A stretch of DNA of 64,000 nucleotides from a virus (taxonomy: Duplodnaviria; Caudoviricetes): IMG/VR virus record IMGVR_UViG_3300035498_000778, positions 32,001 to 96,000 of that record; one strand, 5' to 3'. Position 1 is the stretch's first letter, and each line of letters opens with the position of its first letter. Under the pieces are notes generated by a model that was not told where the DNA came from, did not search any database, and was given only the letters and a program-made list of their open reading frames with translations. Made by a program: the position numbers and the translations under genes. Of the stretch, positions 2,237-61,000 are shown piece after piece.

Positions 2237-2266
2237 AAATTAGAATAAGAAAAAGGAGTGATATTT

Positions 2267-3760
2267 ATGCGTACAAATTCGAAGTTTATACATGAATTTG
2301 ATGAATATGCACAAATAGCTTTAGCTACAGAGTCAGCTGATAGGATAGTGAATGAGGCGTTAGCAAACTGTTACAGAGCGGAAAAAAGAGCAAAGTACAG
2401 CGCAATGTTTGAGAACACCGATTCTTCATATATAGTAGAAGAAGCCAAGCAAGGTCTATTCGAGAAGATTGGCGACGCTATTAAAAGTTTAATCGCTAAT
2501 GTAGTTGATGCTGTAAAGAGCTTATTTTCGAAAATAAAGGGTAATGGTAGCCCTGCTAATGATACAATATCGGAAGCTAAAAAGATTCTTAATGAACACC
2601 CAGAATCGAAGGATGAATTGTTATCAGGATTGGAAGAAGGAAAATATGATATTGGTGATCTTGAAAAACTAAGAAAGGGTTACCAAGAGTGTACCGAACT
2701 TCTAGCTGAAGAGAAAATAGATACCTCAACATTCAAAGGAAAAATCCAAGCTCTTTTAAAGAAGTTTGACAAAGAACCACAAACGGTTGTTAGAGCAAAG
2801 AATTTTGCGGCGACTGTTGGAGTGGCAGTCACGTTATTGGGCCTTATATCAAAAACCCAAAAAGAAACCACTAATATCGCTGACACAGTCAATTCCATGA
2901 AGGAAAGGTTTCATCGTACTTTATCAAAAGAGGGTGATGATGGAACACAACAGTCTGTATTGGCAGCATTTTATGATGCCTCTAAGTTAATATTAAATAA
3001 ATCTGCGAGTGAAAGTGTAAAGCGTGGAAAGTTATTTACAGTTGTTGATAACTTCCTAAAGAAAGTAGTCAATAAATATTCTAAAACAGATTCAACGAAA
3101 CAAGAAGCATCTAGGGAAAAGCACAGACAAGCTGCAAATTCTTATTTACCTAACGCTAGAGATATAATGCTTCTTGAGAAGGAAATAGGTAGGATACAAT
3201 CAGAAATTAAAGAAACTACCGATCCAGACAAAGTAGAAAAACTAAAACGTGATTTAGAAAGAACCGAGACTCGTCTAAGAGAGATTAATAGACATCAGTT
3301 CACTGTTATTGATGACTTGATGGCGGATTCTGAAAAGAACGAAGGTGCCATAGCGCGAAAAGAAGCAGAATTAAAACGTAGGGAAAAAGAGATAGCGCGA
3401 AAAGAAGCAGAGGTTAGTAAACTATTAGCAGACGCACGACGTAAGTCTGCCGCTGCTGATAAACTAGTTAGAAAAAAACAGGCAATCGTCACCAGTGGAA
3501 AGAAAGATGCCATTAAAAATTATATCAGTGATTGTGAAAACGATATGATTGTCATTAATGGAGTAATCGATGATCTAAAAGACATTCGACAGGCTTTGAA
3601 CGCCATTTTGGGACGTAAAAAGGTTAGGAGCGATAAAGATCATGGCATACAAGAAGCTATTGGTAAGATCACCACTGAAATCGGTATAGCATCAGCAAGA
3701 TACAATCAACTAGTTGATAGTCGTAATGAAGCCAAGAAGGCTTTGAGTAAATTATCTTAA
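2267..3760 (+). CDS. Putative internal head/virion coiled-coil protein of the paralogous family
   Basis: VEE-A then GLFEKIGDAIKSLIANVVDAVKSLFSKIKG; coiled coil with a repeated IARKEAE; late promoter. Confidence 0.55.
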   Translation: MRTNSKFIHEFDEYAQIALATESADRIVNEALANCYRAEKRAKYSAMFENTDSSYIVEEAKQGLFEKIGDAIKSLIANVVDAVKSLFSKIKGNGSPANDTISEAKKILNEHPESKDELLSGLEEGKYDIGDLEKLRKGYQECTELLAEEKIDTSTFKGKIQALLKKFDKEPQTVVRAKNFAATVGVAVTLLGLISKTQKETTNIADTVNSMKERFHRTLSKEGDDGTQQSVLAAFYDASKLILNKSASESVKRGKLFTVVDNFLKKVVNKYSKTDSTKQEASREKHRQAANSYLPNARDIMLLEKEIGRIQSEIKETTDPDKVEKLKRDLERTETRLREINRHQFTVIDDLMADSEKNEGAIARKEAELKRREKEIARKEAEVSKLLADARRKSAAADKLVRKKQAIVTSGKKDAIKNYISDCENDMIVINGVIDDLKDIRQALNAILGRKKVRSDKDHGIQEAIGKITTEIGIASARYNQLVDSRNEAKKALSKLS

Positions 3761-3777: not shown

Positions 3778-6700
3778 ATGATAAAAATCGCAGACTATAC
3801 GCAAAATAATATGTTCGAACTAATTTCCTTGTATAAGGATATAGATAGGAACATCTGCACAACAGGATTTAAGAATGCGTGTTATGGCATCAACGAATCT
3901 GCGTTAGATTCTATCATGTCATATAGCGTAGAACACATGGATTTTTCCAAGCCATTGAATTCATCTATTGAAAATTTGATGACCATAGAAGATACGGATG
4001 ATCTTGTATTATTCTATGAGAATATAGTTTCATCGTTCAATCTTAACAATAGACCGATTACCGTAGGTTTAATGGATACTGATGCTATATCCAAGATACG
4101 TCCACAATACCTAAATTTATATGTTAGAGAATTGAATAAGACATTTAAGAAATGGGCTGCAGGTTCTATTAAGGCAGACACAGTAGATATGGAACGTGTT
4201 AAAACGATATGTATGAAATTGGCTGATAAGACTAAGAAACAAGTTGTATGTACAACACTACCTAGTGCAGAAGCTTTGATGCTTCAAACACGTAATCCGG
4301 ATATGTTCACAGCAGACGCTGATTTCATATCTAACATTACAGTCCCATTTGTTCGTAACTTTAATATAGTTAAAGGCCAATTAATAAATGAGGCGCAGGA
4401 TATTCTAAGAGCTACGAATATGGTCAAAGATCAACTTCAATCTCTTACGGAGGCAGGTTCAAAGTTAAAACTGGACCCTGAAACAAAGAGATTATTTGAT
4501 TTTTATGTGTTTAATACCGTAAAGTTTTCATATGATATGATGACGTATATAGTTTCAATGACCATTCAGAGAATTGGTGCGTATGTTTACAACATGAATA
4601 CATTTTGTAAGTTGTATAATACGATTCATAACTTCTACCCAGAAGGCTCCAGAATACTACACGAGAATGCAATAGACAGTGGTCTTGATGACTTAGATGA
4701 CACAACTTTAATGAACGCTATGATATATAATGACACAACGTTTTTATATCCAATGATACACCAATGTCTTGATAGAAATAGCTTTGAGGCCGATCATCTA
4801 ACTAGATATGTAAATACTGATGATATCATTGATAATATCAATGGATATGATTGTGATGGTGAATATGATAAAAATTGCTATGAACAAACACTTGCTGTTT
4901 TAAAAATAGTAAATGAAAAAATGCGTGGCATGTATGAAGCGTCTAAGGATCCAAACATGACCGTTGATGATATCATAAATCGATCTGGTGCTAACGATGC
5001 GTTTACTGACAAGTTTGGACCTCTAGTAGCGGCTATTCCCGATACAAGCGCATATACAAGGGATCTAAATTCTGATAATGGTAGTCCACAAGCGGCTTTA
5101 AAAATGATAAAGACTGAACTAGCTAATTATGATACAAATATTTCGAAAATCGCAGCTGCATGCCAAGCTATATACAAGAATATATCCAGCATGCAGAAAT
5201 CTTACAAATACAATGTAAATGGTCAATTCGGATCTTCTGAACAAGCCGATGAACTTCTACAGTTTGCTGATGAATTTGAGCAACAGATTAAAGATATATC
5301 TATTAATCTTATTAAGGCATTCATTCAGAGACTCAAAGGCTTAAAGGGAGCTATGGAATCTATTGACGTTTTTCAGGAAAAAGTATGTTTGCCTATTGCT
5401 GTATACGATCGTGATGACGAATATTTAATAGAGGCTTATAATTCTATAATTGAAGAGAAAACCATTTTAGAGCGTGGTGCTTTTGAGTCATTATTGATGG
5501 ATTACAACTCTTATAGATCAAAAGTGGAACGTGGTGTAGAACTAGTATATGAAGCTAATACCAATGAAAAGAAAAACGATAATGATACTGATAAGAAAAA
5601 TGCTAGTAACGATAAATCTAGTGACAAGTCGGATGATAGTACCGATAATCCACAGGTTAATATATCATCTAATACCGATCAACAAAACGAGACTGATACT
5701 AATAATAGTGACAAGAATACTGGTGATCAGAACAACAGTAATACTACTGATAATTCAAATAACGACAATAACCAACAAGGCAAGACTGATGCTAAGCCAT
5801 CTGATACGAATAATTCCAATAATCAGAATAATTCTCAGTCTAATGCTCAAAATAATACCAATAACACAACTGATAACAACTCTCAAAATAATCAAAACAA
5901 GAAGGGTATTATTAGAGAAGCTTTAGATAAGTTTATGAAGTTTGTCAAAGATTTAATAAACAAGTTTAAAGGTAAGGTTAAGAAACTTGGTCCTAAGGCT
6001 AACTATGTCAAAAACAACAAGGATAAGATATTAAATGCTATTAATGAGAAAACATCACTAAAATTGCAACCATATTATCCTGCGTTTGATTATAAACGCT
6101 TCGTGGCAGACATGAAAACATTTGAAAATAATATAAAAAGTAAAGCTATTGAATCTGCCAAGAAATCTCAGGGAGAGTTCAGATCAGATATATTTGGTTT
6201 CATATCTACTAAACAAATAGGCAATTTCACTTTGGAAAATGATTTTGGTAAATTTATAATGGCGTATTATTCTTCAGGAAATAATATAGACGACTTCGAA
6301 AAAGGTCGTGTCGTAACGGGCGATGCGTTGAAGAATGATATGACTAATGAAATAGAATATATATCCAACTATGAGACTATATGTAGTGAAGTTGCTAATA
6401 CTTGTAACAGAATATTAAGATATATTGATGCAGAATTTGCTAATAAACTGGGTATTGAACCTAGTAATACGAATAATAATACACAGAATAATAGCAATAC
6501 AAATAATAATGCTACTGATAATAATAACAATACACAGAATAATAGTCAGAATACAAATGAGTCTGTAATACTTAACGAATCTGTTTTGTTCGAAGACGGA
6601 GAGCAGACTAATAGTAATGACAATAATAATTCCGAAGAAAGTATTATTAGCAAGGTTACTGGGGATGTTAGAGTCTTCGGAACGACCATCCTTACTGTTT

Positions 6701-20391: not shown

Positions 20392-21234
20392 TTATATTCC
20401 TAACCAAGCTATAGCATCATAAACAGATTCATTTACATCATTGATCGTTGTATTCTGGGTACTTTTATAATTTATTATAACTTGCTTAAGATTTCGAAGA
20501 ATACTGCTATACGCCAATTGAGCAACCTGTAAAGATAATTTGTACCTTCTAATTTCTAAGTTGGTAACTTTATTAATAATAGTACTTAGTTCGCTATCAT
20601 ATTGAGGTATGCGTCGGTTACAATAATTGATAGTATCATTCACTAAACGTTCGCACGTCTTAACATCATTATTAAGTCGGTCTACTGCACTAGCCATATG
20701 GTCAATATATTTATAGTTTATAATATCCTCAACATATATTTTCGAGTTTTTGAGGGTGTTATCTGAGATATCTTTTTCGATGCTTTCAAATATTTCGTTA
20801 TTACAATTAATTGACTCATTCATTTCCTCTTTAACTATTTTAAACGCTTCGTCGTATACTGCTCTCGCCTCTTTTCTGGCACGCTTTGCAAGTCGTTCAG
20901 GAATATTATCCAATTCTTTATTAAGTGCGTCCATATCGATGTCAGAACTTATAAGATCACCCTCTACTTCATCAATCATTGAACGAAGAGCTTTTATATT
21001 ATTTGATATGCTAGAGGTTGTATTCAACGTCTTTAAATAATAATCTACATTTATAACGTCAACTTGCAATTTAAGTATATTTTTATCCTCTTTAGCTAAT
21101 TCTCTTACCCTTGATAAGTAGTTATCGGAATTCTTCTTAAAAATTACGCTTTGTAATTTTTCAATAAACTCTTTTATTTTTTCTTTTATGGCTTTAAATA
21201 ACTCACCTAATCTAGTCTTAATTTTTTCAAGCAT
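20392..21234 (-). CDS. Putative internal head protein of the paralogous family
   Basis: Begins with the family amphipathic helix MLEKIKTRLGELFKAIKEKIKEFIEKL; C-terminal VNES motif. Confidence 0.5.
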   Translation of the reverse strand: MLEKIKTRLGELFKAIKEKIKEFIEKLQSVIFKKNSDNYLSRVRELAKEDKNILKLQVDVINVDYYLKTLNTTSSISNNIKALRSMIDEVEGDLISSDIDMDALNKELDNIPERLAKRARKEARAVYDEAFKIVKEEMNESINCNNEIFESIEKDISDNTLKNSKIYVEDIINYKYIDHMASAVDRLNNDVKTCERLVNDTINYCNRRIPQYDSELSTIINKVTNLEIRRYKLSLQVAQLAYSSILRNLKQVIINYKSTQNTTINDVNESVYDAIAWLGI

Positions 21235-23215: not shown

Positions 23216-23971
23216 ATGAAAAAGATGTTACTAATCACCGCTGGTGTAGCTGCAGTTGCTGCAACAGTTATTGCTTCTATGGTAGTTATCAACAAGAAGA
23301 AAACACAACAAGTTGATACTATAGATGACACATTCGAATGCAGTGGCGATTGCGAAAACTGTCCTAGATACGACACATGCTGTGACATCGAAATCGAAGA
23401 AGTTTACGTTGAAGGTGTTACAACTGAGGATGAAACATCTGAAGAAAATACACCTGATACATCTGAAGACGACACTACCGACATCAACGATGACAACAGC
23501 GACGAAGATGACCCAAGAACCATCTACAACCGTATTATGCATAATGACTCTAAGGTGACCGAATTCCTCAAAGTAAAAATGCTTGCATCAATATCCGAGA
23601 TGGAATCTAAAGACTACAAAGGAAAACTAAATCATCCAGACTCTCAGGCATATTACAGATACAATAGTTTTGCAAATGCCCTCGCTAAGCTTGTAAGCAT
23701 ACGACTAAATATAAATATGATGCATGTGAATAATGAAAGCTTATTACGTGAAGAACCTATCGTTGGCTCTATCATAGAAACAGCCGCAAGAGTATTCTAC
23801 TTATCTGAAGATGGTAAGAATGTAGTGTGTGACCATGATGCCCATGAAAAGTTATTATTGTTATACTCAGAGTTCGACAAAAAATTTGGATACCAACATG
23901 AGGTAGACCATGTCCTAATGTATGAAGAAGTGGCCAAAGATTGTATCGATGGAGTTAACGACATTAAATAG
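23216..23971 (+). CDS. Early membrane-anchored Cys-cluster/acidic protein, paralog of 45828 and 46422
   Basis: N-terminal TM or signal segment, CSGDCENCPRYDTCC, D/E/T-rich linker. Confidence 0.75.
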   Translation: MKKMLLITAGVAAVAATVIASMVVINKKKTQQVDTIDDTFECSGDCENCPRYDTCCDIEIEEVYVEGVTTEDETSEENTPDTSEDDTTDINDDNSDEDDPRTIYNRIMHNDSKVTEFLKVKMLASISEMESKDYKGKLNHPDSQAYYRYNSFANALAKLVSIRLNINMMHVNNESLLREEPIVGSIIETAARVFYLSEDGKNVVCDHDAHEKLLLLYSEFDKKFGYQHEVDHVLMYEEVAKDCIDGVNDIK

Positions 23972-23980
23972 CAACAATTT

Positions 23981-24008
23981 AAAAAGAGTTTCATATGAAA
24001 CTCTTTTT
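23981..24008. terminator. Perfect 28-bp palindrome terminator
   Basis: AAAAAGAGTTTCAT|ATGAAACTCTTTTT. Confidence 0.75.
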
Positions 24009-24017
24009 TTTTGTGTT

Positions 24018-24105
24018 ATTATTTGCTTTTTCTTTTAAAAATGCTTTAACTATTGTATTTATTATAAATAGTAATATTGGTGTTATGAAAAATTTCTCAC
24101 TACCA
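24018..24105 (-). pseudogene. Frameshifted remnant of the 3' end of gene 47221..48432
   Basis: Nearly identical to 47221-47312 apart from small deletions. Confidence 0.8.
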
Positions 24106-24119
24106 GAAAACAAAAAATA

Positions 24120-48530: not shown

Positions 48531-49988
48531 ATGAATAATATATTTATTAATAACATGATTTATGACCATGAGTTTAATTCTAAATTAGACCAGTATTTTA
48601 TTGAAATGGTAGAGTATAGACATGACGAAGACGCGTACCCTGTAATGTTTGAATCTGCAATGGACGGTGTTCGTAAATTGATAGATAATTTACTAGCCAA
48701 AGTTAAGAGCGTCATTGAAAAGGTGAAGGTATTTCTTTTTGGAGAAAAGGCAAAAAAGGATGAACAACAAACTGATGCTAAAGTTGAAAAGATGGAAGAA
48801 GTGATATCTGAACATCCTGAAATTGGACAGCAAGAGGTAACGACTATCGATTCAGATAAATATGTAAAAGAATGTAGAAAATTACGCAAGCAAAATAAAT
48901 TCACAGGAATAACAGATACACTTTTTAAAGCTTGTGCAGTGACTGGAACAGTGGCAAGTGTTATTATGATGTTTAAAAGTGGTAAAGTTAAAAAACAGCT
49001 TAAAAATGCAATGTCTGAGCTTGAACAGTCGAAGAATTCTATTACAAAGTTAAAAAGCGAACTAGATAAATCAGCTTCGGCTAATACAGCTTTATCCAGT
49101 GAGCTTAACAAACAAAAAACGACTAATAATGATCTTAAGACAAAGATTGCGGATCTCGAAAAACAAATAAGTGATAAGAATCAAGAAATAACACAACTAA
49201 AAAAAGACAATAAGAATAATCCTAGAATAACAGAGTTAGAGAATGAGGTTAAAGATTTGAAGACCCAAGTCAAAAATCTGACCGAAGAAAATAAGGGTAA
49301 CGTCACACGACTAGATACTGCAAAACACGAGAATACAGGTTTGAAGAATAACCTCAAAAAAAGTCAGGAAGAGGTCAATAATTTACATCAGGAAGTCTTA
49401 GACTTAAAAGGCAAGTTACAAACTGAAGAACAAAAGGTAGTCAGTCTAACAACAGAAATAGAGGGTCTCAAACGAATTGAGCAGCAACAAAAGACGATAG
49501 CGACCACTGGCTCTGCTAATAATATTAATGGTAAACAAGCTGCAAATAGTAGTGGTTCTACGAAGCCTGCACCAGCACCAAAGTCTAAAGATGAAAAAGA
49601 TACTGTAGAGAAAGATCATAAAGCATCACAAAATATGCGAGAATTAAAGGCTGCGCTTAATGCTCTTCGTAATAAGATAAAACTTAAAGATAACGTCCGC
49701 ATATCAGAATCGGTGAAATCGAGATATTTATGGTTTTTTAATGAAGAAAACTGCGGAAGAACAATGAAAAAGAGTCTCTCTGATGCCGAGTATATAGAAC
49801 TTGCAAATAGGATATCTTTAAAGACAAAAGCAAACAGTGAAGAAGAATGTAAAAACTTTGTAATAACAATGAAATATAACACTAAGGATGATATAAATGC
49901 TTTTATAAGTAGTAAACTTTGGGCTATCATTAGTAAATATAAAAATACTGTGGGAGCTGGAGGCAGTGGTTCTAAGCGTACGAAGTAA
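48531..49988 (+). CDS. Array member 1 (divergent): internal-head-like N-terminus plus coiled coil
   Basis: MNNIFINNM...MFE-SAMDGVRKLIDNLLAKVK is homologous to the next three genes; late promoter 48490-48501. Confidence 0.65.
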   Translation: MNNIFINNMIYDHEFNSKLDQYFIEMVEYRHDEDAYPVMFESAMDGVRKLIDNLLAKVKSVIEKVKVFLFGEKAKKDEQQTDAKVEKMEEVISEHPEIGQQEVTTIDSDKYVKECRKLRKQNKFTGITDTLFKACAVTGTVASVIMMFKSGKVKKQLKNAMSELEQSKNSITKLKSELDKSASANTALSSELNKQKTTNNDLKTKIADLEKQISDKNQEITQLKKDNKNNPRITELENEVKDLKTQVKNLTEENKGNVTRLDTAKHENTGLKNNLKKSQEEVNNLHQEVLDLKGKLQTEEQKVVSLTTEIEGLKRIEQQQKTIATTGSANNINGKQAANSSGSTKPAPAPKSKDEKDTVEKDHKASQNMRELKAALNALRNKIKLKDNVRISESVKSRYLWFFNEENCGRTMKKSLSDAEYIELANRISLKTKANSEEECKNFVITMKYNTKDDINAFISSKLWAIISKYKNTVGAGGSGSKRTK

Positions 49989-50084
49989 TAGTATATATTA
50001 GGTATATATGTGGTATATACCACATATATACATTTTTTACATTAATATAACCAATAATATATATAAGAAAGGATATGATGTATA
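49985..50084 (+). repeat. About 100-bp intergenic unit: 30-bp palindrome, TACA-N6-TA promoter and SD
   Basis: Palindrome 50002-50031; repeated at about 51264-51361 and 52970-53070. Confidence 0.9.
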
Positions 50085-51254
50085 ATGGATAATATTATAT
50101 TAGAGAATATGTATTTTGAACATAATATAAGCTCATTAACAGATAAATATATTATAGAATGTTATGAAGATAGTTATATGTGTGAGTCAGTATTAGATAG
50201 TATTAAAACATTCTTTAGTAATTTAAAAGAAAAGATAAAAGATATATTTAATAAGATAATAGCTAAAATAACAGGTAAAAGTAAAGAGAATACAAATAAA
50301 CTAAATGAAATAGAAGATAAGATTAAAGATAACCCTAAGTTAGGATTAGTTAAAGTACAAATAGCTGATCCTAATAAAGTAGAAGCAGAAATAGATAAAC
50401 AAAAGAAAGAATATTTAAATAATAAGAATAAAGAAAAAGGTAAGTTTAAAGTAGATAAGAAGAAAGTAGCTACCACAGCCACAGTTACTGTTACATTAGG
50501 TGCAGCTGTAGTATTATTAAAGAAAGGTATAATAAAACTACCTGATGAAGTTCAGAAGATTCAAAAAAATGTAACTAGTACTATAGATAAAAATAAAGAA
50601 CAACTTGACAGAGAATATAATATGTTAAGGAATAATTACAGGCTTTTTGGTTATGATCACCCAGAGCAGCATAGTGATAAAGAAATAGAAGATGCCCTTA
50701 AAAGAGAACAAAAAGTGTTTGGTACTAAGGGTGAACATAAGATGGAAGAAATAGAAGCTGAAGAAAAAAGGCTGAAGGAAATAGAAAGAGAGTCATCGGA
50801 AGTTGTACAAGCTGCACAAGAAGCCACAGTTATGAGATATGAACTTTTGCTTGAAGAATGTAATCGATTATTATCAGAAGCTCTAAACGCAACATATAAG
50901 GCTGAGCGCATTAAAAAAGATGATTTGGAAGGGTTGTATGATACTGACAGTGTAGAAAAATTTGATAAGATTGCATCAGCTGCTCGTGATAAAATTGAAC
51001 AAAATAAGAGTAAAATTGATTCAATAGAGGATAATTCATATAGCATGAGAGAGGACCGACGACGAAATATGGCTGAGATTCGTAGGAAAGCAGTGGACGA
51101 TAGAGCAAAAATCATAGATGCTTATAATAGAGATCTTGATGAACTAGAGAAAAAATACCCTTCTCCAGATGGAAAGTCCGCTCCTAGACTTTCAAATATG
51201 AGACCTAGCAAGATTAAACTCAGTATGCCAGAAGATATCCCGAACAACGGGTAG
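50085..51254 (+). CDS. Array member 2: constant N-terminus plus unique C-terminus
   Basis: First about 150 aa nearly identical to 51362 and 53071. Confidence 0.8.
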   Translation: MDNIILENMYFEHNISSLTDKYIIECYEDSYMCESVLDSIKTFFSNLKEKIKDIFNKIIAKITGKSKENTNKLNEIEDKIKDNPKLGLVKVQIADPNKVEAEIDKQKKEYLNNKNKEKGKFKVDKKKVATTATVTVTLGAAVVLLKKGIIKLPDEVQKIQKNVTSTIDKNKEQLDREYNMLRNNYRLFGYDHPEQHSDKEIEDALKREQKVFGTKGEHKMEEIEAEEKRLKEIERESSEVVQAAQEATVMRYELLLEECNRLLSEALNATYKAERIKKDDLEGLYDTDSVEKFDKIASAARDKIEQNKSKIDSIEDNSYSMREDRRRNMAEIRRKAVDDRAKIIDAYNRDLDELEKKYPSPDGKSAPRLSNMRPSKIKLSMPEDIPNNG

Positions 51255-51263
51255 AGAGAAGTA

Positions 51264-51361
51264 ATAATAGTATATATTAGGTATATATGTGGTATATACC
51301 ACATATATACATTTTTTACATTATTATAACCAATAATATATATAAGAAAGGATATGATAAT
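51264..51361 (+). repeat. About 100-bp intergenic unit, copy 2
   Basis: Palindrome 51281-51310. Confidence 0.9.
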
Positions 51362-52780
51362 ATGGATAATATTATATTAGAGAATATGTACTTTGAACAT
51401 AATATATCTTCATTAACAGATAAATATATTATAGAATGTTATGAAGAATCATACATGTGTGAAAGTGTATTAGATAGTATTAAAACATTCTTTAGTAATC
51501 TTAAACAGAAGATAAAAGATATATTTAATAAGATAATAAGTAAAATAACAGGTAAGAATAAAGATACTAATAATAAACTAAATGAAATAGAAGATAAGAT
51601 TAAAGATAATCCTAAATTAGGATTAGTTAAAGTACAGATAGCTGATCCTAATAAAGTAGAGAATGAGATAGATAAACAAAAGAAAGAATATTTAAATAAT
51701 AAGAATAAAGAAAAAGGTAAGTTTAAAGTAGATAAGAAGAAAGTAGCTACCGCAGCCACAGTTACTGTTACGTTAGGTGCAGCTGTAGTATTATTAAAGA
51801 AAGGTATAATTAAACTACCTAGTAAAGTTGAAAAGAGTAAAAAAGAAGTAAGTAATACAGTTGATAAATGTGAACAAAATGCTACTAAAACTGTAGAGAA
51901 TAATAGTGATAATAAAGAAGAAGTTAAAGAACAACAACAAGAAGCGGCAGAAGTTACACAAGCTAATGAAGAAGCTGCAGCTGCCGAGTATGAAAGTATA
52001 TTAAATACAATAGCTGAATTAGAACAGATAAGATATGATCATCATTTTGAAACCATGATGGCACAAACCGGTAACAAAAAAGAGGACGAAGATCTCATGG
52101 AGAAAGACAGAGAATTTGCAGACAAAATCGAAGGTAAACAACTTGATCTGAAGATGAGTGCTAGTTATCATGGTCCTAAGAGGAAAGAGCTTAGAAAGAA
52201 ACACAATGAACGCATGAAAAACATACATGATGACTACAGTAAAAAAACAATAGATACATTCTTTACTCCACCATCTGAGCCAAGGAAAGTAATATCAAAA
52301 GAAGAAGCAGATGAAATAAGAAGCGAAAAACAGAGGGATGATCAGGAAAAAAGGGAAAAAGCTAGGCTACGAGATGAAGAAAACGCAGTAACAGATAGGG
52401 TGTTGAAACGATATGAGGGCATTACTTCAAAGAAACTATTTAACACGTTTAAGGGATATGCTAAAAAGGAAATTCAAATAAATCAAGAATGTCTGGCAAA
52501 CATACGTAGGGATGTTGAGAAATTCTATAAGAAGTACGGCCATATATCCAAAGATAGGTGTGATAAAATTGAGAAGCAATATATGAGCATACGTTTAGAT
52601 AAGTTACGAGTACTTTATAAGGATTATCCTCCATTTAAAGATATATTTAAAGAACGCGGAGATGATGAGTATTTAGAGTTATATGATGGTCTCAAAGATA
52701 AAGTGGCAACAAGCTGGACTGATTCATCTGTTCCACTACATAGGTTTATGGATGATATAGTTAAAAACTCAGAGAAATAG
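51362..52780 (+). CDS. Array member 3: constant N-terminus plus unique C-terminus
   Basis: True start is ATG 51362 after the repeated SD. Confidence 0.8.
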   Translation: MDNIILENMYFEHNISSLTDKYIIECYEESYMCESVLDSIKTFFSNLKQKIKDIFNKIISKITGKNKDTNNKLNEIEDKIKDNPKLGLVKVQIADPNKVENEIDKQKKEYLNNKNKEKGKFKVDKKKVATAATVTVTLGAAVVLLKKGIIKLPSKVEKSKKEVSNTVDKCEQNATKTVENNSDNKEEVKEQQQEAAEVTQANEEAAAAEYESILNTIAELEQIRYDHHFETMMAQTGNKKEDEDLMEKDREFADKIEGKQLDLKMSASYHGPKRKELRKKHNERMKNIHDDYSKKTIDTFFTPPSEPRKVISKEEADEIRSEKQRDDQEKREKARLRDEENAVTDRVLKRYEGITSKKLFNTFKGYAKKEIQINQECLANIRRDVEKFYKKYGHISKDRCDKIEKQYMSIRLDKLRVLYKDYPPFKDIFKERGDDEYLELYDGLKDKVATSWTDSSVPLHRFMDDIVKNSEK

Positions 52781-52783
52781 TTA

Positions 52784-52981
52784 ATGTATACCAAAAAAAG
52801 CGTTACTTCAGCTGTAGCTGTAGTATTACTAAAGAAAGGTATAATTAAACTACCTAGTAAAGTTGAAAAGAGTAAAAAAGAAGTAAGTAATACAGTTGAT
52901 AAATGTGAACAAAATGCTACTAAAACTGTAGAGAATAATAAAAATAAAGATACTAAAGAAGAAGTCCAAGTAATAATATAA
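52784..52981 (+). pseudogene. Orphan copy of the constant/variable hinge region
   Basis: About 52815-52940 duplicates about 51780-51905; no SD and no C-terminal domain. Confidence 0.75.
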
Positions 52982-53070
52982 TGTGGTATATATGTGGTAT
53001 ATACCACATATATACATTTTTTACATTAATATAACCAATATAACCAATATATAAGAAAGGATATGATAAT
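52970..53070 (+). repeat. About 100-bp intergenic unit, copy 3
   Basis: Palindrome 52986-53015. Confidence 0.9.
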
Positions 53071-54378
53071 ATGGATAATATTATATTAGAGAATATGTAT
53101 TTTGAACATAATATATCTTCATTAACAGATAAATATATTATAGAATGTTATGAAGAATCATACATGTGTGAGTCAGTATTAGATAGTATTAAAACATTCT
53201 TTAGTAATTTAAAAGAAAAGATAAAAGATATATTTAATAAGATAATAAGTAAAATAACAGGTAAAAGTAAAGAGAATACAAATAAACTAAATGAAATAGA
53301 AGATAAGATTAAAGATAATCCTAAATTAGGATTAGTTAAAGTACAAATAGCTGATCCTCAAAAGGTTGAAGCAGAGATAGATAAACAAAAGAAAGAATAT
53401 CTTAATAATAAGAATAAAGAAAAAGGTAAGTTTAAAGTAGATAAGAAGAAAGTTATAACAGTAGCTACAGTAACAGTATCATTGGCTGCAGCTGTAGTAT
53501 TACTAAAGAAAGGTATAATTAAACTACCTAGTAAAGCTAAACAAGCAGAACAGAATGTAACTAAAACTGTTGATAAATGTGAACAAAATGCTACTAAAGC
53601 TGTAGAGAATGATAGTACTGATAAAACCACTGATGCTAAAGAAGAAGTTAAAGAACAGCAACAAAAAGCAGCAGAAACTGTACAGGCGGACCAAGAAGCT
53701 ATTACTAAATATCGTAATGCACTAGACGTAATGTGGCTGAATATCAATAGATGTATAGGATATGAGAAATCACTGAACGATCCAGATATTAGTGAAAAGG
53801 AGAAGAAACATATTAAGGAAGAGCAATGGGTCAATTATAAATTGTTTAAAAAAGAAGAGACTGCGGCTCAAAATTTATATGATGAAAATAATCCTGTTAT
53901 GGTAGACTTAAAGAATAAACATCAGCTCTCTGATAAAACAAAATCCCTTATGGATGAAATTAAAAATAGGCACGATAAGGAGTGGGCTGAAGCTACGTAT
54001 GCGTCAGAAACCGACATAGATAAACTTAAAACCATATTGGACGACATAGTTAAATTGTGCCCAAGAAGTGAAGAACTTTTCTATGCGAAGAGAGTACCGG
54101 ATATTAGTGAATCTGATGAGAAACGCCTTCAAAACGAAGAAGATCAGATAAATAAGAAAATCGCTGAATTAGTATCTAGTGCTAAAGAAATATTTAAAAG
54201 AGATAATAAAGAGATGGGACGACTTTGTTCAGACTATAATAGAAGCATAAAGGATATTAAAACAGAAATTGATAGCAAGTATAAACAAAAATATGGTTCA
54301 ACATTAAAACCTGCTCCTTCCAACTTTGCTGCTAAAATGCATAGGGCATACCGATATTCATTAAAGGATCCAGAATAA
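53071..54378 (+). CDS. Array member 4: constant N-terminus plus unique C-terminus
   Basis: N-terminal region nearly identical to 50085 and 51362; unrelated C-terminus. Confidence 0.8.
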   Translation: MDNIILENMYFEHNISSLTDKYIIECYEESYMCESVLDSIKTFFSNLKEKIKDIFNKIISKITGKSKENTNKLNEIEDKIKDNPKLGLVKVQIADPQKVEAEIDKQKKEYLNNKNKEKGKFKVDKKKVITVATVTVSLAAAVVLLKKGIIKLPSKAKQAEQNVTKTVDKCEQNATKAVENDSTDKTTDAKEEVKEQQQKAAETVQADQEAITKYRNALDVMWLNINRCIGYEKSLNDPDISEKEKKHIKEEQWVNYKLFKKEETAAQNLYDENNPVMVDLKNKHQLSDKTKSLMDEIKNRHDKEWAEATYASETDIDKLKTILDDIVKLCPRSEELFYAKRVPDISESDEKRLQNEEDQINKKIAELVSSAKEIFKRDNKEMGRLCSDYNRSIKDIKTEIDSKYKQKYGSTLKPAPSNFAAKMHRAYRYSLKDPE

Positions 54379-54401
54379 CTTTTTATTATATTAATAACAT
54401 T

Positions 54402-54435
54402 TATATTAAGTAAACCATATGGTTTACTTAATATA
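54402..54435. terminator. Perfect 34-bp palindrome terminator
   Basis: TATATTAAGTAAACCAT|ATGGTTTACTTAATATA. Confidence 0.7.
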
Positions 54436-54441
54436 TTTTTA

Positions 54442-54454
54442 ATTATATATTATA
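54442..54454 (+). promoter_or_regulatory. Early promoter of the nvRNAP beta' gene
   Basis: ATTATATATTATA. Confidence 0.7.
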
Positions 54455-54503
54455 GACATGGAAGTATATAAACATATAGACCATAATATGGAGGTAATAT
54501 AAT

Positions 54504-55790
54504 ATGGCTAAGAAGAAGAAAACGTACATCGAACGATTAAACTGGGACGCAGAGTATATCAGAGATGTAATGTCAGGTGAAGGATTTAAAATAACAGAAC
54601 CAGCATCTGTTACTGTGGATAGTGGAAAGGAAAAGACCTTGTATGGTTTATACTCACCACTCTATGGTACAGACTACTCAGATGAACAGTCTTTCGTTGA
54701 AAGATACCATTGTGATTGTGGCTACTTTACAGGTAAAGCTTTCGAGGGCGAAGTGTGTCCTAAGTGCAATACTAAGGTTACTTATAAGGATATAAATATT
54801 AAGTTTACTGGATGGATATCATTTGGTAGACATAAATTATTAAATCCTTATTGGTACAATGTACTTGACAAAGCACTGGGAACTGAATCTCTTAAAGGAC
54901 CTGATGGTAAGTCCGTTGGTGGTAGAGTTAACATACTAAAGACTATTATTAACTCAAAACAGATGGTAGATATTAATGGTCAGACTGCTAGGTATGACGC
55001 TGATGCGATGAATGAGAAAGTATCACATCCATATGTAGGTATAGGTATGACGGAGTTGTATAATAGGTTTGATGAAGTACTACGCTATTTCTATGACAAG
55101 AAACAAAACTCCAGACCTAAGATTAAGATGATAAAGGATGAAATACAAAAAGTATGGTGTACTAAGATTCCTATTTATAGTACATTCATGCGTCCAATGT
55201 CATCTACATCAGAGAACCTATACTACACACAAATGGACAAACAACTATCTCCTCTATTCACAATATCATTAAAGATACAAGATGCAGAGGATATAGAAGT
55301 TGACAACATGTTAACGCGTGCTCAAGAACGTCTTAATCAATACTGGGATATCAACTTCAGTTTGATTAATGGTAAGGAAGGTTGGATTAGACAACAGATT
55401 GTAGGCGGTAGTTTAAATAACACCTCACGTAATGTTATTATACCTGACCCTACCTTACGTGAAAATGAACTTGCGTTATCATATCACACATTCATCGAAT
55501 TATTTAAGTTCCAGATTATTGCATCACTACGTGATTACGGTGGTATGAGTTTAGCTGATGCTGACAAGCGCTGGAATGAAGCATACTACAAATTCGACCC
55601 ATTAGTATACGAAACTATGAATCAGATTATCAAGGAGAAGGAACCTTGTGTAATCATTAACAGAAACCCCACGTTAAACTATTACAGTATTTTACTGATG
55701 AAAATCAAACGCGTAAAACCCGACTTTAGTGATTATACGCTTTCGGTTCCCATAAGCATACTCGTGGGGCTTAACGCTGATTTTGATGGT
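54504..55790 (+). CDS. rpoC: Non-virion RNA polymerase beta' N-terminal subunit, exon 1
   Basis: Zn ribbon C.CG...CPKC, SRNVIIPDP, INRNPTL; ends NADFDG. Confidence 0.88.
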
Positions 55791-57569
55791 CCAAATGCTT
55801 AATTCATGATGCATGTATTGATTGAAATGTAAAATGGACGAACAATACAGTAAAAAGATAGGAATTAAGCGAGCAAGTTTTTGCCATCACTAAACCCTTT
55901 AAATTGCTGGAAGGACTTTATAACATATTGCTACAACGTGATTAGAAATGATGACCGTGAATGCTCTAAAAAGTATATGTTTTAGTCAATCAGCAGCCCG
56001 AATATTGAGATCTCAATTTATAATGATAACTTGCCACTCTAAATTTTATCTTTTAAAATATTCTAAGGAGGATTTAAAAATGAAAGAAATATTTAAAGAT
56101 GTGGTAGGTTATGAAGGAAAATATAAAGTATCCAATATGGGTTATGTTATATCTTCAAATGGAAAAATTGTTAAACCGTTTGCTGATAGAAAAGGATACT
56201 TAAGATGTTCTTTACACAACCCAAATACTATAAAAACCATTCATCGAATAGTTGCTACAGCATTTATACCTAATCCAGATAATAAGCCTGAAATTAATCA
56301 CAAAGATTGTAATACTGCTAATAATCGTGCAGATAATCTTGAATGGATGACTAGTAAAGAAAATAGCAATTACCGTGACAGTTTAGGTCACAACAATCGT
56401 GTAAATGCTATTGAAGCGCATAGTTGTCCATGTGCTATTTATGACTTAGAAGGTAATTTGTTGTATTTATTTAAAAGTCATAAAGAGGCTGCAGTCTTAC
56501 TAGATTTTGATGCCACTTACATTGGTCAAGCGTGCAAAGGTGTCAAAGCTACTTACAAGAACTTTATCTGGAGAGATGTTGATTATTGTAAACCGTCTGA
56601 AGTATCAGATTATATTCAAAAAATGCATCTTGAAGATGGGTTGGATAAGGTAATGCAGAATCGACCATCTAAAGAACAGGAATGTGTTCAATTATCAATG
56701 GATGATGTGGAACTAGCAAGATATAGCTCGTGTTCAGAAGCCGCAAGAGAATGTAAGTTAAGTGGTACATCTATAGCAAGAGTATGTAGAGGAGAACGTA
56801 ATTCATATGCTGGTTTTAAATGGAAATACTCAGGTAATAGTAATAATGTGAAAAGTGTCAAATATGACATTACTAAGTATGTAGCTCGTTTGGACTCTTC
56901 ATATAATATAGACAAAGTATACACCACTTGCAAAGAAGCTGCTGAAAAAAATAATATAAATCAATCATCTTTAAGCTCTGCGTGTAGAGGAGAATACTCA
57001 ATGTGCGGAGGATATAGATGGAGATACGTTACTGCTGACGAACTATTGAACACTGGTTTACAGATACCTAATGATAATAGGGCATCATCAAAACCATGTG
57101 CACAATACGATCCAGATACGAACGAACTGATTGATGTATATGTATCTTGTGTAGACGCAGGCAAAAGTGTTGGAGCAACTGGATGTAACATCTCAATGGC
57201 ATGTAATGGTCAAATAAGCAAATCGCATGGATACAGATGGGAATATATAGATATGGATACCTATTATAAATTGAAGAAACAAGATTAAGGTTCATCGACT
57301 ATCGAAACCAAAATACCAGTAGGAGAATATTTGGTATCTCCGAAAATGACTGTGAAGTCATTTGGTAAAATACGGAGCGTTGTGAAACGCACTTAAGGAA
57401 TTAGAGTACAGCCAAGCGGTGTGGTTGTGTGTAATAAGCACGTAATGCCACTTAAATGGAAATGTTGGGCACTATCCAAATAGTGAAGATATAGTCACAC
57501 CTTCTAGTGGAAGCTAGAGAAGTTCATAAGAGAACTGCGTGAGCGTAGCGAACTTGCGTGAAGATAGTG
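55791..57569 (+). mobile_element. Group I self-splicing intron (1779 nt) carrying a homing endonuclease
   Basis: 5' exon ends in U and pairs with IGS GCCATCA (55883-55889) through U.G; P AAATTGCTGGAA, Q AATCAGCAGC, R GTTCATCGACTA, S AAGATATAGTC; terminal G; splicing restores NADFDG-DILN. Confidence 0.9.
56080..57288 (+). CDS. Intron-encoded NUMOD4-HNH homing endonuclease with four NUMOD1-like repeats
   Basis: EIFKDVVGYEGKYKVSNMG; HRIVA.AFIPN...INHKD....NN...NLEW; four repeats ending (F/Y).W. Confidence 0.9.
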   Translation: MKEIFKDVVGYEGKYKVSNMGYVISSNGKIVKPFADRKGYLRCSLHNPNTIKTIHRIVATAFIPNPDNKPEINHKDCNTANNRADNLEWMTSKENSNYRDSLGHNNRVNAIEAHSCPCAIYDLEGNLLYLFKSHKEAAVLLDFDATYIGQACKGVKATYKNFIWRDVDYCKPSEVSDYIQKMHLEDGLDKVMQNRPSKEQECVQLSMDDVELARYSSCSEAARECKLSGTSIARVCRGERNSYAGFKWKYSGNSNNVKSVKYDITKYVARLDSSYNIDKVYTTCKEAAEKNNINQSSLSSACRGEYSMCGGYRWRYVTADELLNTGLQIPNDNRASSKPCAQYDPDTNELIDVYVSCVDAGKSVGATGCNISMACNGQISKSHGYRWEYIDMDTYYKLKKQD

Positions 57570-57740
57570 GATATTTTAAACATGATTGCACTAGTGGACG
57601 ACTATGACAAACATTTATTCAGACGTTATGACCCACATACACGTATGATGATTAGTCGTGATACTGGTTTGCTAAATAAGGACTACGCAATAGCTAAGTC
57701 ACAAATGATAGACCTATATTATTTCTGCACAATGGAATAA
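57570..57740 (+). CDS. rpoC: nvRNAP beta' N-terminal subunit, exon 2
   Basis: Begins GAT (Asp), completing DFDGD; spliced product is 485 aa. Confidence 0.85.
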   Translation, partial: DILNMIALVDDYDKHLFRRYDPHTRMMISRDTGLLNKDYAIAKSQMIDLYYFCTME

Positions 57741-57836
57741 CAAAAAGTATAGTTAAACAATATAGTAAAAATTTATGAGAAGAAGTTTTATAGACTTCTT
57801 CTCATATGTGAAATAAAATTAATGGAGGAATTTGTT

Positions 57837-58034
57837 ATGAAAGGATTAAGAGTTCTTGTAAATGTAAACAGTAATATTCTGTTCACCGAGGATGAATATG
57901 ACAACTGGAGTTATGATGGTACCTGCCTTATGATTGAAAAGGATGGCGGTTTGGTCGCACTTTACACCGTCAATAACATAATTGGCGCACTTAAGTGGGA
58001 CGATGATGATACCAATAACAATAATGAATCATAA
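57837..58034 (+). CDS. Small hypothetical protein
   Basis: GGAGG SD before ATG 57837; terminator about 58044-58078. Confidence 0.6.
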   Translation: MKGLRVLVNVNSNILFTEDEYDNWSYDGTCLMIEKDGGLVALYTVNNIIGALKWDDDDTNNNNES

Positions 58035-58088
58035 TACATATATAAATGAAGACTGACAATGTCAGTCTTCATTTTTTTATTTTTATAA

Positions 58089-61000
58089 TTATAGAATTAG
58101 CGCACGTATATGCGTATCATCTATACGCTTGATCATGCGAATATTTGTTTTTTCTTCTGAGTATGTAGCAATACCGTTAACGGCTGTCACATACTTATTC
58201 TTTTTACATGTACCATCATCAATACATACAAGTTTACCTAAGAATCCAACCATATCCCATTCTGATCTATCTTTACGTGAAACATATTCTTTAGTTTCAT
58301 CCCAGTCTGCACTTACCTTATCTACCATTCGGCTCCATTCCTCATACTTAACAGTACCGTCTTCATTATACTGAGCAGGGTATGTTACCTCTTCTTGTAT
58401 AATCTTTCCAAAGATATCATGTTCATACTTGTCATGCCATTCATCATCGTAACAGTCACCTATTACTATTGGGTCTGATGATATAATACCTATAATATCA
58501 TCACCTTTATTAGCTAACTTCATCTTACTTTCAGAATATTCATCATCACTGTCTGATAAGGATACTAATAATCCTCTTCTATCATCATCCTCTGGATTAC
58601 CATCTTCCCATTCCATATACTCAGCATAGTCGGCTGTACCAGATATAGTACCGTATATACTCTTAATATATCCGTACGCGAATGGATAAGATTTTTCTCC
58701 AACATACGAGTTTGCAGAACCTGTGGTTATTCTTGATATTATAACCCCATTTCGCTGTATCTGAAACCCTTTTGTATCGTTTACACGATTTAATATGAAT
58801 GATCCGTCAGTGATATATGCGGAATGACTGTTAACCTTAAAATCTAGGTTAGCGTCTATTTCTGTCTTAGTTATTTCAAACGCGTTGGATCGCGTGTAGG
58901 TACTACTATCATTATATGTAGTCCATGTACCGTTTCCGACACTGAATATAGTTGAGTCAACCGTTGAGCTGTTAGCTTTACCTAAGGCTATTTCATATTG
59001 GTTAGTAGTCGTTAGACCTGTGCCAAAACAATAAGTTCGGTGGTTCGCGGGTGTATTGCATTGACCCATTACATAGTTGAGTGTGTATTCTGAACTATTA
59101 GAACAGCCCAATACATACGATCCTATATTATTATACTGGAGCCTATCAGACTTCGCATATGTAAACGAATTATTGAAACCTAAGATCATCGAACCGTAAC
59201 AAGTACTGCTATTATTTCCACCGTAAATTATAGAATATGGTGCTGTAACAGTATTATCATGACCTCCACATAAACAACTTGAGCTGTCTGAATTTAAATT
59301 GTTAGACCAGCCCTCAACGATAGAATAAGGCGCGTCTACGGTATTATTATAACCCCCAACAATAGAATCCTTTCCACTCACAGTGTTTTCCTCACCAAAC
59401 ACAGATGTGTTGGTAGCATCAGATGTTAGACTGTTTTTGTAACCTCCAACAACCGTATTATTACCAGCACATGTATTACTATTTCCGTGTACGAATGATC
59501 TATCACCGCTTGCAGTACAACCGTTACCACCAGCATGTGAATCTGTTCCTGACGCGGTGCATGATCCGCCTTCAACATGTGATCTTGCTCCGCTCGCAGT
59601 ACCACCATTACCTTCTGCATGTGCTGATGAATTTGTCGCTTTTGTTCCATTACCTTCTGCATGGCTATTATTTCCACTCGCGGTAGTTTGATAACCCTCC
59701 GCATGCGCTTGTGGACCGCTAACGGTACAGCTATTACCTTCAACATGAGCGTCCGCTACTGCATTGATTTTGTTATTGTAGCCTTCAGCATGTGAGTCTC
59801 TTGATGAACCAGTAATGGTATTATTATATCCTTCAACATGAGCACCGCTACTTGCACTATTGTCAATAACGTTCTGGTATCCTTCGACATGTGAGTAGGC
59901 GCCAAGTGTAGCAGTACTGGATCCTTCTGCATGTGAGTAATTACCAATCGCGTAATTTGCTGAATTATTAAATACTTCGGCGCCTGTGCCTCCGGTAGAA
60001 CTAGCGATAGAATTAGAATTAATAGTTTTTGCACTGTAGCTATATCCTTCTCTTAAGTGGCCGACGCCATACAACTGACTATCAGAAAGTTTTATAGTGT
60101 CATTATCTATATAGCTACTTAAGTTTTTATTACTGAGCAATGTATACCATTCTGACCAAGTGGTGCTACCATTGGAACCACTGCCGCCTCTATATTGTAA
60201 GCCGTTTGCACTAACTCCATTTGTAATAAATAGCTGCGCACCAAAACCTGCTGTTGTATCCCATCCGAATGTTAATATGTATCCATCACCCATCGGTTTA
60301 TTAGATGTCATAGAACTTGTCGCAACCATCAAACTTAATGATGACTTCTGTAATGTCGTCAAATACTCACTTACATCATTAGCGTCAGCCTTTCTATTAT
60401 TACCACTGTAATAGTATGGAGATACAATATATTCATGCGTATGATCGCTGTCAGCTTTAGTATCAAGAGCATCGCATACAACCTTATTTTGGATAGCGTT
60501 GGTACTTGAGTAGTCTAATGAACTATCGACTATTACTCTAGTCGCTCTATTCTCAATCTGGGATAATTTCGTCTTATCAGCAGAACTCATAAGACCATCT
60601 GAAATCGTAGTAGCATTATTATAAACATGGACTATGTAATCCGCCCATGCTGCCGTACCATCACCGGTACATAATAACATCTGTCCATCTTCACCTCCAC
60701 TTGGAATATGCATATATCCAGATGTCGTAGGATGAACATAGTTATTAGCGCCAGCCGCAATGCCGTCTAATTTAGTCTTATCACTAGAACTCATAAGACC
60801 TGATGTGCTTGTGGTAGCTACACCGTAGGTCGTATCTGTTGGTATGACCCATGTACCGTCACCTCTTAAAAATGATGTCTGCTTACCCGCAGCTGGTGCT
60901 GGCACTAAACCACTTGTACCAGTACTACTTGATGTAGCACCAGTCATAACATCGTAAGTTATATTTTCAGAACCTGAGGTAATAGTACCGGTTGTACCAT

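Follow-up and report, generated by a model that had tools for sequence, protein, structure and literature searches.

Paralogous head proteins that are proteolysed and ejected have been described for the jumbo phages phiKZ (gp92-97) and SPN3US (gp53/54) (10.1101/2024.03.24.586471; PMC10052503). Those of phiKZ are proteolysed during packaging, and several of them are injected (10.1101/2024.03.24.586471), while gp53 and gp54 of SPN3US (paralog family A) are abundant head proteins with propeptides of 125-137 amino acids (aa) that are cut at several places behind a Glu residue, preferably where Ser occupies P1' (PMC10052503). The proteins that jumbo phages package are numerous, and their targeting signals and roles are largely unknown. 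In T-even phages, the loci for internal proteins (IPs) are hyperplastic. Here, we analyzed a 64,000-nucleotide (nt) stretch of phage DNA (the window; positions 32,001 to 96,000 of IMG/VR virus record IMGVR_UViG_3300035498_000778) that carries a tandem array of four genes, named by their start positions g48531, g50085, g51362, and g53071, which belong to a family without Pfam or PHROG annotation. New here are the family itself, its transmembrane (TM)-type helix, the concerted evolution of a 153-aa N-terminal module (N-module) together with an upstream regulatory unit, and the cassette-like turnover of helical C-termini.

A first-pass annotation made from the sequence alone had described three genes sharing about 150 near-identical N-terminal residues, plus an older, diverged relative, and both observations held. 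The first 153 residues of g50085, g51362, and g53071 are 93%-95% identical, and g48531 matches the other three at 27%-31% identity over the N-module. Divergence begins after ...KKGIIKLP. That the C-termini are unrelated was correct for g50085, which beyond residue 153 has no detectable similarity to g51362 or g53071 (blastp E 0.08-0.15), but has to be amended for the latter two, which have a ~55-aa linker in common at 61% identity and nothing further (blastp). The C-terminus of g51362 is an orphan, as a word-based search with it returned itself only. The three close genes are indeed each preceded by a common unit, ~94 nt long rather than the ~100 bp first estimated, which comprises a 30-nt palindrome, a T6 run, a WACA-N6-TA motif (here TACA-N6-TA), and an AAGAAAGGA ribosome-binding site (RBS). 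Its palindrome forms a 13-bp hairpin (-18 kcal/mol, z -4.1), and within the 125-kb source contig the unit occurs upstream of these three genes only. Also in agreement with the earlier description, the constant part is richer in A/T (GC content 0.23; GC at third codon positions, GC3, 0.13-0.16) than the variable parts (GC 0.34, GC3 0.25), in a genome with a GC content of 0.336. Intergenic spaces in the array (96-110 nt) hold the hairpin/promoter unit alone, the sole small open reading frame (ORF) being a hinge remnant that has neither N-module nor C-terminus.

Misassembly, which the first-pass annotation had named as a danger, can be set aside. That the array consists of collapsed or chimeric repeats is hardly credible: although the repeat does confuse assemblers, and both contigs considered below end within the constant region, an independent 13,142-bp contig from a sister sample (3300035499) reproduces window 46990-60131 at 99.977% identity in the same gene order, with 3 mismatches and no gaps across the whole array. 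We therefore regard the array as real, and its copies are distinguishable because they differ by 6%-12% in DNA.

The window corresponds to G000:C1:32001-96000 of the source contig (G000), a linear record of 124,892 bp with a CheckV completeness of 52%. The only other close relatives are carried by a partner contig, IMGVR_UViG_3300035498_000575 (G001; 102,416 bp, CheckV completeness 42%), sampled here in the pieces L008 and L009. The first 107 nt of the partner (L008:1-107) are the exact reverse complement of G000:C1:1-107; this overlap falls within a tandem acidic repeat, and a single ORF crosses the join. Apart from the family, the source contig and the sampled 24.5 kb of its partner have no gene in common, and the two sum to ~227 kb in length (124.9 + 102.4 kb) and to 94% in CheckV completeness (52% + 42%). 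Because of the perfect end overlap, the complementary gene content, and the CheckV values, the contigs are very probably two halves of one ~227-kb genome. Their opposite ends both lie within the family constant region, at G000:C1:124482-124892 on the minus strand (P0004) and at L009:10001-10453. Repeats of this family break metagenome assemblies of these phages, and recognising them allowed the two contigs to be joined.

The array that the first-pass annotation treated by itself is merely one of at least four family loci, which together would hold at least eight members in the reconstructed genome: the four array genes, P0004, P0003, P0006, and a diverged member elsewhere on the source contig, with the hinge remnant as an extra (Table 1). 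This genome-wide dispersal had been overlooked, as had the conserved TM-like helix that closes the constant module. The genes for the head maturation protease and a virion structural protein (phrog_18911) lie between P0003 and P0006, and in other lineages, a member sits just upstream of sheath-like and tube genes. An exhaustive HMMER search retrieved ~20 relatives of 219-560 aa, aligned N-module to N-module throughout, and a profile search added 11 more, none with a Pfam domain. Neither the array nor the distant members P0019 and P0023 had a DNA or protein match in 50,697 GenBank phages (megablast, tblastn).

Several lines of evidence indicate that the N-module has a history of its own. Among five close copies, synonymous divergence (dS) is 0.14-0.40 and the ratio of nonsynonymous to synonymous divergence (dN/dS) 0.17-0.40; the module is under purifying selection and far younger than the C-termini. 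The possibility that the C-termini are mutually homologous, raised at the first pass, applies to two pairs, g53071/P0004 (34% identity over 297 aa, E 9e-31) and g50085/P0006 (31% over 137 aa, E 3e-11), and the other C-termini of the close members are unalignable. C-termini as old as the dS of the N-module implies would retain ~80% identity, and N-modules have therefore been spread or homogenised by recombination. Accordingly, the DNA alignment of the N-module contains blocks of shared variants with conflicting groupings, such that g53071 agrees with P0003 over the helix region, and over helix plus linker g51362 agrees with P0004 and the hinge remnant. The four-gamete test was failed by 853 of 1431 informative site pairs, and compatibility between neighbouring sites exceeded that seen in 5000 permutations (p = 2e-4; PHI-like test). 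Gene conversion among paralogs keeps both the N-module and the upstream unit alike.

Traces of exchange are also visible at the edges of the module. We interpret the hinge remnant as a scar left by recombination where constant and variable parts meet. A solo unit (hairpin, T-run, promoter, and RBS) that no family ORF follows lies 3' of P0003 and is either a scar of gene loss or else the terminator of P0003. Since the N-module and its unit are the sole stretches that the paralogs share, and since both the scar and the differences between strains are located at the 3' edge of these stretches, they probably supply the homology for replacement, duplication, and deletion of C-termini. In addition, the 133-bp segment 3' of g53071 is identical, in inverted orientation, to G000:C1:123555-123687 (3' of P0004), 37 kb away. 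Inverted 133-bp repeats combined with inverted 450-bp N-modules could permit inversion of the intervening segment, which may explain the assembly break at P0004.

Copy number and C-terminal swapping, which the first-pass annotation had proposed to compare across genomes, both vary in a human-gut sister lineage. P0007, P0010, P0011, P0012, and a 521-aa protein have 138-aa N-modules that are 83%-94% identical, plus the linker, and C-termini that are otherwise unrelated. A human-gut (Hadza) contig of 236,364 bp carries P0012 in tandem with the gene for the 521-aa protein between ResIII/DEAD helicase and SMC-like genes, with P0007 at a separate locus, and a related strain has the single gene P0011 between the corresponding helicase and SMC-like genes, with flanks 96%-97% identical. 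Homology between the two loci extends to nt 514 of the gene, is then lost, and restarts just past the stop codon. A simple deletion between tandem copies was rejected as the origin of the one-copy strain, because the C-terminus of P0011 matches neither gene of the two-copy strain beyond ~70 aa. As judged from these sequences, the sister lineage shows both C-terminal replacement and copy-number change between strains; for the phage of the window, the strain comparison covers one near-identical sister sample. Together, the mosaics, the scar, the solo unit, and the sister strains provide recombination evidence for the modular build first proposed, in which a constant N-module and unit are joined to exchangeable C-termini.

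Table 1. Coordinates of the array, its regulatory units, neighbouring genes, and further family loci. Positions are those of the window unless prefixed (G000:C1, source contig; L008, sampled piece of the partner contig).
Feature	Position	Strand	Description
g48531	48531-49988	+	485 aa; diverged family member with long coiled-coil C-terminus
Upstream unit 1	49986-50084	+	Hairpin 50002-50031, T6 run, TACA-N6-TA 50038-50049, RBS AAGAAAGGA 50065-50073
g50085	50085-51254	+	389 aa; constant N-module 50085-50543
Upstream unit 2	51255-51361	+	Hairpin 51281-51310, T6 run, TACA-N6-TA 51317-51328, RBS
g51362	51362-52780	+	472 aa from homologous start; constant N-module 51362-51820; alternative longer ORF starts at 51287 and reads through the promoter unit
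Hinge remnant	52784-52981	+	65-aa ORF; 95%-96% copy of 51767-51912 (hydrophobic helix and linker)
Upstream unit 3	52982-53070	+	Hairpin 52986-53015, T6 run, TACA-N6-TA 53022-53033, RBS
g53071	53071-54378	+	435 aa; leader 53071-53172; hydrophobic helix 53449-53508
133-bp segment	54375-54507	+	3' of g53071; AR9-type early promoter for the beta'-N gene
Head-tail-joining-like virion gene	47221-48477	minus	PF24214, phrog_3013; abuts the array
RNA polymerase beta' subunit, N-terminal part (beta'-N)	54504-55802		phrog_2987
HNH/NUMOD1/NUMOD4 homing endonuclease	55948-57288	+	Directly after the beta'-N gene
Diverged member	G000:C1:29545-30474		
P0004	G000:C1:124482-124892	minus	At contig end, which cuts off its start
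P0003	L008:3586-4719		Partner contig
Solo unit	L008:~4800-4880		Hairpin, T-run, promoter, and RBS; 3' of P0003, no family ORF behind
Head maturation protease	L008:5109-5966		phrog_3014, E 3e-23
P0006	L008:7455-8441		Partner contig

Late promoters of phage AR9 have the form AACA-N6-TA/G and early ones the form AAATATATATTAT-N6-G (PMC5312081). WACA-N6-TA motifs precede the ATG by 41-51 nt in all six close members (the start of P0004 being cut off), in g48531 (AACA-N6-TA at 48490-48501), and in the protease gene, against a background of 2.2 per kb per strand. Since the six copies of the unit depend on one another, the independent cases number three, namely the unit, g48531, and the protease gene. 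The beta'-N gene adjoining the array has an AR9-type early motif instead. These motifs suggest that the family members are late genes. P0003, which has no co-directional gene upstream, is without the hairpin and keeps the promoter part, as would be expected if the hairpin served to terminate the gene before it. Every member forms a moron-like late unit of its own, with terminator hairpin, AR9-type late promoter, RBS, and ORF.

The N-termini of the family are rich in a motif of the form [LIVMFYC]-x-E-[SACGNT], which we counted over residues 1-55 in 20 non-redundant members. There were 58 occurrences, 5.3 per 100 aa versus 0.5 per 100 aa elsewhere in the protein (a tenfold difference), and none of 2000 shuffles reached this number (shuffled leaders, 16.6 +/- 3.7), although, the members being related, the count shows how well a repeated motif is conserved and not how often it arose independently. 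In most members the first motif is at residues 5-8 (ILEN, FIES, ILES, LQES). The leader of g53071 contains ILEN, IIEC, and MCES, and that of g48531 a single motif (MFES). A scan then covered all 118 ORFs with a length of 120 aa or more in the source contig and the sampled parts of its partner. Of the 110 outside the family, only 2 reached a count of three motifs or more within residues 1-55. These 2 include the major head protein (G000:C1:724-2526, outside the window; phrog_20655, E 2e-33), the N-terminus of which reads MLNFLTES..FEET..FTEA..IMES..ISEA, with five motifs in a ~100-aa extension ahead of the homologous region that starts near residue 101. ORF 29-1042 likewise carries 3 motifs within residues 1-55, and it gives weak tape-measure-like coiled-coil matches.

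The T4 major capsid protein is a canonical gp21-type substrate that is cut after Glu, and T4 gp23 is cleaved directly after FLTE, giving the mature N-terminus. By sequence inspection, T4 gp23 carries FLTE, and the T4 core proteins gp67, gp68, and gp22 begin LIEA, LVLEN, and LIAEA. Major capsid proteins of the phiKZ type are likewise canonical substrates of gp21/gp175-type proteases cutting after Glu (PMC10052503). The phage's own head protease carries MTES, VMEA, and MEES in its C-terminal 85 residues, which recalls the C-terminal self-cleavage reported for SPN3US gp245 (PMC10052503). The N-terminus of the family may plausibly be a packaging leader processed by the head protease. Separately, three co-directional ORFs at 29-1042, 1050-2183, and 2258-3760 (plus strand), beside the diverged member on the source contig, have motif-rich N-termini (hydrophobic-x-Glu-Ser/Ala) and may encode further protease-processed virion proteins.

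Both the leader and the late timing would apply equally to components of the prohead core, scaffold, or inner body, in which the N-module would dock to a membrane-bound prohead, the charged helical C-termini would fill space, and the protease would degrade most or all of the protein, with nothing functional delivered. Scaffolding proteins resemble the C-termini here in being charged, all-helical, and fast-evolving, inner-body genes of phiKZ also occur as multiple paralogs per genome, and protease action in SPN3US is tied to release of the prohead from the membrane (PMC10052503). However, clustering of the motifs in the leader, with a tenfold lower density elsewhere, argues against wholesale degradation. 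Turnover of C-termini and copy number between strains would be odd for an essential scaffold, and the members are dispersed as separate morons rather than gathered in one morphogenesis operon. On balance, we find a purely scaffolding role distinctly improbable.

The N-module opens with an acidic leader of 35-55 aa that bears 2-4 hydrophobic-x-Glu-(Ser/Asn/Ala/Cys) sites. It further contains a basic amphipathic helix, the motif NPxxG...K-V-x-V-x-D, and a stretch rich in Lys, and it closes with a Gly/Ala/Thr-rich TM-type helix; downstream of it follows a lineage-specific, highly charged, all-helical C-terminus. Near-invariant positions are the NP motif (P84), K90, D95, and K98, and the invariant columns of a 9-sequence N-module alignment are E25, E34, and K98. 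The Gly/Ala/Thr/Val-rich hydrophobic helix is present in all members but P0006, which has lost it and kept the rest of the N-module. It starts at residue 96-168 (lying near residues 130-148 in g48531), is flanked by Lys in the window members and most relatives, and has KD19 values of 1.4-2.5, its transmembrane character being judged by this hydropathy measure alone.

This helix keeps alive a reading without packaging, unlikely though by no means negligible, in which the proteins would be single-pass membrane proteins made late in the infected cell for lysis control, membrane remodelling, or superinfection exclusion, with variable C-termini diversifying against competing phages or host envelope factors. 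Such a role would suit the conservation of the helix and its Lys flanks in most members as well as the swapping of C-termini between strains. It would also suit the surroundings of some members, since one (locus L010) lies directly upstream of a holin-like gene with three TM segments and a GH25 lysin gene, and P0003 is divergent from an endolysin-like gene located upstream of it. Furthermore, g48531 matches the PHROG 'hol-like chemotaxis' at E 4.7e-7, a match spanning helix and coiled coil only; a weak DUF948 match was also seen, and single members gave Rz-like matches at E 0.001-0.005. Nonetheless, membrane proteins of this kind would leave unexplained both the enrichment of leader motifs and their clustering in common with the major capsid protein, and P0006 retains the remainder of the N-module without the helix. 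Charged helical C-termini and an N-terminal part of ~130 aa are unlike known holins and spanins, no member matched a holin Pfam family, and no lysis gene adjoins the array in the window.

The first-pass annotation had likened the array to polymorphic toxins, with a fixed packaging leader recombined with variable effectors such as anti-defence or host-takeover proteins; in the strong sense, these payloads would be enzymatic. Formally, the constant N-terminus, the variable C-terminus, and recombination at the junction do resemble such systems, but the nature of the payloads does not follow suit. Of the C-termini, for which structural modelling had been proposed, two were modelled by AlphaFold. 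Residues 210-420 of g53071 form confident helical bundles (predicted local distance difference test, pLDDT, 80-93), and the C-terminus of g51362 is all-helical (mean pLDDT 74). Foldseek returned nothing at E <= 0.001 for the g53071 model against BFVD and PDB or for the g51362 C-terminus against PDB, and the best score of a wide VIA-align search (Z 10.3, to an Sso2/syntaxin Habc-like three-helix bundle) lies below the noise level of ~13 for helical models. No Pfam domain was found in the C-termini of ~35 members, no match in Pfam and PHROG scans of g50085, g51362, and g53071, and only coiled-coil-type or sub-threshold matches in such scans across 23 members. From the all-helical models, the lack of a fold match, and the lack of Pfam domains, the payloads therefore do not seem to be recognisable enzymes or toxins. 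As the first-pass annotation had itself remarked, there are also no small immunity-like ORFs between the array genes and no reverse transcriptase, PF00078 being absent from both contigs in a search that detected its controls. We consider an effector system of the polymorphic-toxin type very improbable.

Two further candidates were rejected. A diversity-generating retroelement would involve a reverse transcriptase, of which there is none, and the variable parts cannot be aligned, unlike copies mutated at adenines. Tape-measure proteins were dismissed as 330-530 aa is too short for the tail of a jumbo myophage, with many paralogs per genome and PHROG matches at E ~0.002 only. We also observed that g53071 (residues 205-435) and g51362 (190-472), although unrelated in sequence, both have syntaxin Habc/Sso1-Sso2-type bundles as their top match, below significance (VIA Z 10.3; Foldseek E 0.2, probability 0.91), which serves as a lead only.

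We consider it about evenly balanced whether the family comprises late, protease-processed virion proteins, head-internal or ejected, with a membrane-insertion helix. The leader would then be a prohead-targeting propeptide, cut after Glu by a head maturation protease of the T4 gp21/phiKZ gp175 type. The proteins would be packaged in the head and delivered together with the DNA, the hydrophobic helix would enter the host membrane upon ejection, and the helical C-termini would act as binding or space-filling modules that are either weakly constrained or engaged in an arms race.

A number of points weigh against this role. The kinship with phiKZ internal head proteins, on which the first-pass annotation drew, was not borne out, and the family does not appear to be homologous to phiKZ_IP (PF12699). 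No window member matched PF12699 at E <= 0.01, and the only family member to do so, P0008, scored 17.7 bits over 34 residues against a cut-off of 27. Genome-wide, the sole PF12699 signal came from a non-family 280-aa ORF (20392-21234, minus strand) in two co-linear stretches, the better of which (12.8 bits, E 0.003) is below the cut-off. Aligning the N-module alignment with that of phiKZ gp92-97 gave an hhalign probability of 1.8%, and the ESM Atlas feature score to the phiKZ_IP cluster (0.77) is within noise. A TM-type helix is not a known feature of phiKZ or T4 internal head proteins, the maximum KD19 of gp92-97 being 1.3. Cleavage is deduced from motifs, and these are degenerate, with a hydrophobic residue at P3 as in T4, where phiKZ has S/A/G and SPN3US has A. 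AlphaFold models of the N-module are of low confidence (pLDDT 24-67, from a 23-sequence alignment). Genomic context is not uniformly structural, as some members adjoin lysis genes (holin-like and GH25 genes in L010, endolysin in L008) and others stand among replication genes. Lastly, the unity of the two contigs, which places protease and array in one genome, is itself a deduction.

A bolder extension of the packaged-protein reading would make the N-module a portable two-step address, a packaging leader trimmed by the protease and then a membrane-insertion helix, which loads helical modules into the capsid and then plants them in the host membrane at injection, where the C-termini shelter the incoming DNA. 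Its users would be jumbo phages without a known phiKZ_IP family, and the modules would be interchangeable. The C-termini would recruit membrane or reshape it around the entering DNA, as a shelter of the early-infection-vesicle type, and swapping at the strain level would reflect an arms race with host defences. We rate this extension as decidedly improbable. If delivery and insertion into the host membrane are true, they would bear on how incoming DNA is protected in AR9-type jumbo phages, which do not form a nucleus.

The phage is an AR9/phiKZ-type jumbo phage of ~227 kb. Relatives of its beta'-N are all distant (23%-29% identity) and belong to phiKZ-like and AR9/phiR1-37/LPJP1-type jumbo phages, and a query with the phiKZ major capsid protein had no match in either contig. 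Other genes identified encode further RNA polymerase (RNAP) pieces, a DnaB-like helicase, a DNA polymerase, and GroEL-like and SbcC-like proteins. The position of the homing endonuclease is in line with RNAP genes being split by mobile endonucleases without an intron or intein. Upstream of the array, a second pair of paralogs (45828-46319 and 46422-47174, plus strand) has near-identical N-termini and differing C-termini, with a hydrophobic start that resembles a signal anchor (MKKMLLI...), a stretch rich in Cys, and acidic DDTTEDETSEENTS repeats. A direct repeat of ~315 bp with 82% identity links window positions 46990-47310 and 23793-24106 (blastn).

Irrespective of function, the family provides a clear natural case of concerted evolution and cassette exchange inside the genome of a lytic phage. 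Its leader of ~35 aa within a constant part of 153 aa is a sharply delimited candidate for a packaging and processing module.

Among described systems, those closest to the family in function are phiKZ gp92-97, SPN3US gp53/54, and the T4 internal proteins with a capsid-targeting sequence. phiKZ gp92-97 are also tandem paralogs (370-820 aa) of a jumbo phage with split multisubunit RNAPs and a gp175-type protease, and their N-termini open with motifs of the L-x-E-S/G/D/N type. However, phiKZ IPs have a domain in common along their length and no hydrophobic helix, whereas only the N-module is common here and a hydrophobic helix is present. SPN3US gp53 and gp54 are comparable by their described features, not by sequence, as paralogous head proteins with long N-terminal propeptides, although their motif is A-x-E and no cassette-like exchange of C-termini has been reported for them.

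With T4 IPI-III, Alt, and the core proteins, which have a capsid-targeting sequence cut by gp21, the family has in common a conserved short leader ending in hydrophobic-x-Glu (gp68 begins ...LVLEN) and an encoded gp21-type protease, here on the partner contig that is very probably part of the same genome. This likeness in packaging is drawn from genes and sequence, and the present proteins differ in being much longer, with a conserved part of ~150 aa that includes a TM-type helix and with several motifs per leader. Polymorphic toxin, contact-dependent growth inhibition (CDI), and Rhs systems similarly combine a constant N-terminal part with a sharply bounded, variable C-terminus that is exchanged through homologous recombination, and they too have orphan fragments. 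Nonetheless, the genes here are late genes of a phage rather than substrates of bacterial secretion, and they come without toxin fold or immunity genes. Like phage morons, finally, the members bring their own terminator and promoter and are inserted between unrelated genes at several loci, but whereas morons are usually single, unrelated to one another, and expressed from prophages, these constitute one repeated, homogenised family in a lytic jumbo phage.

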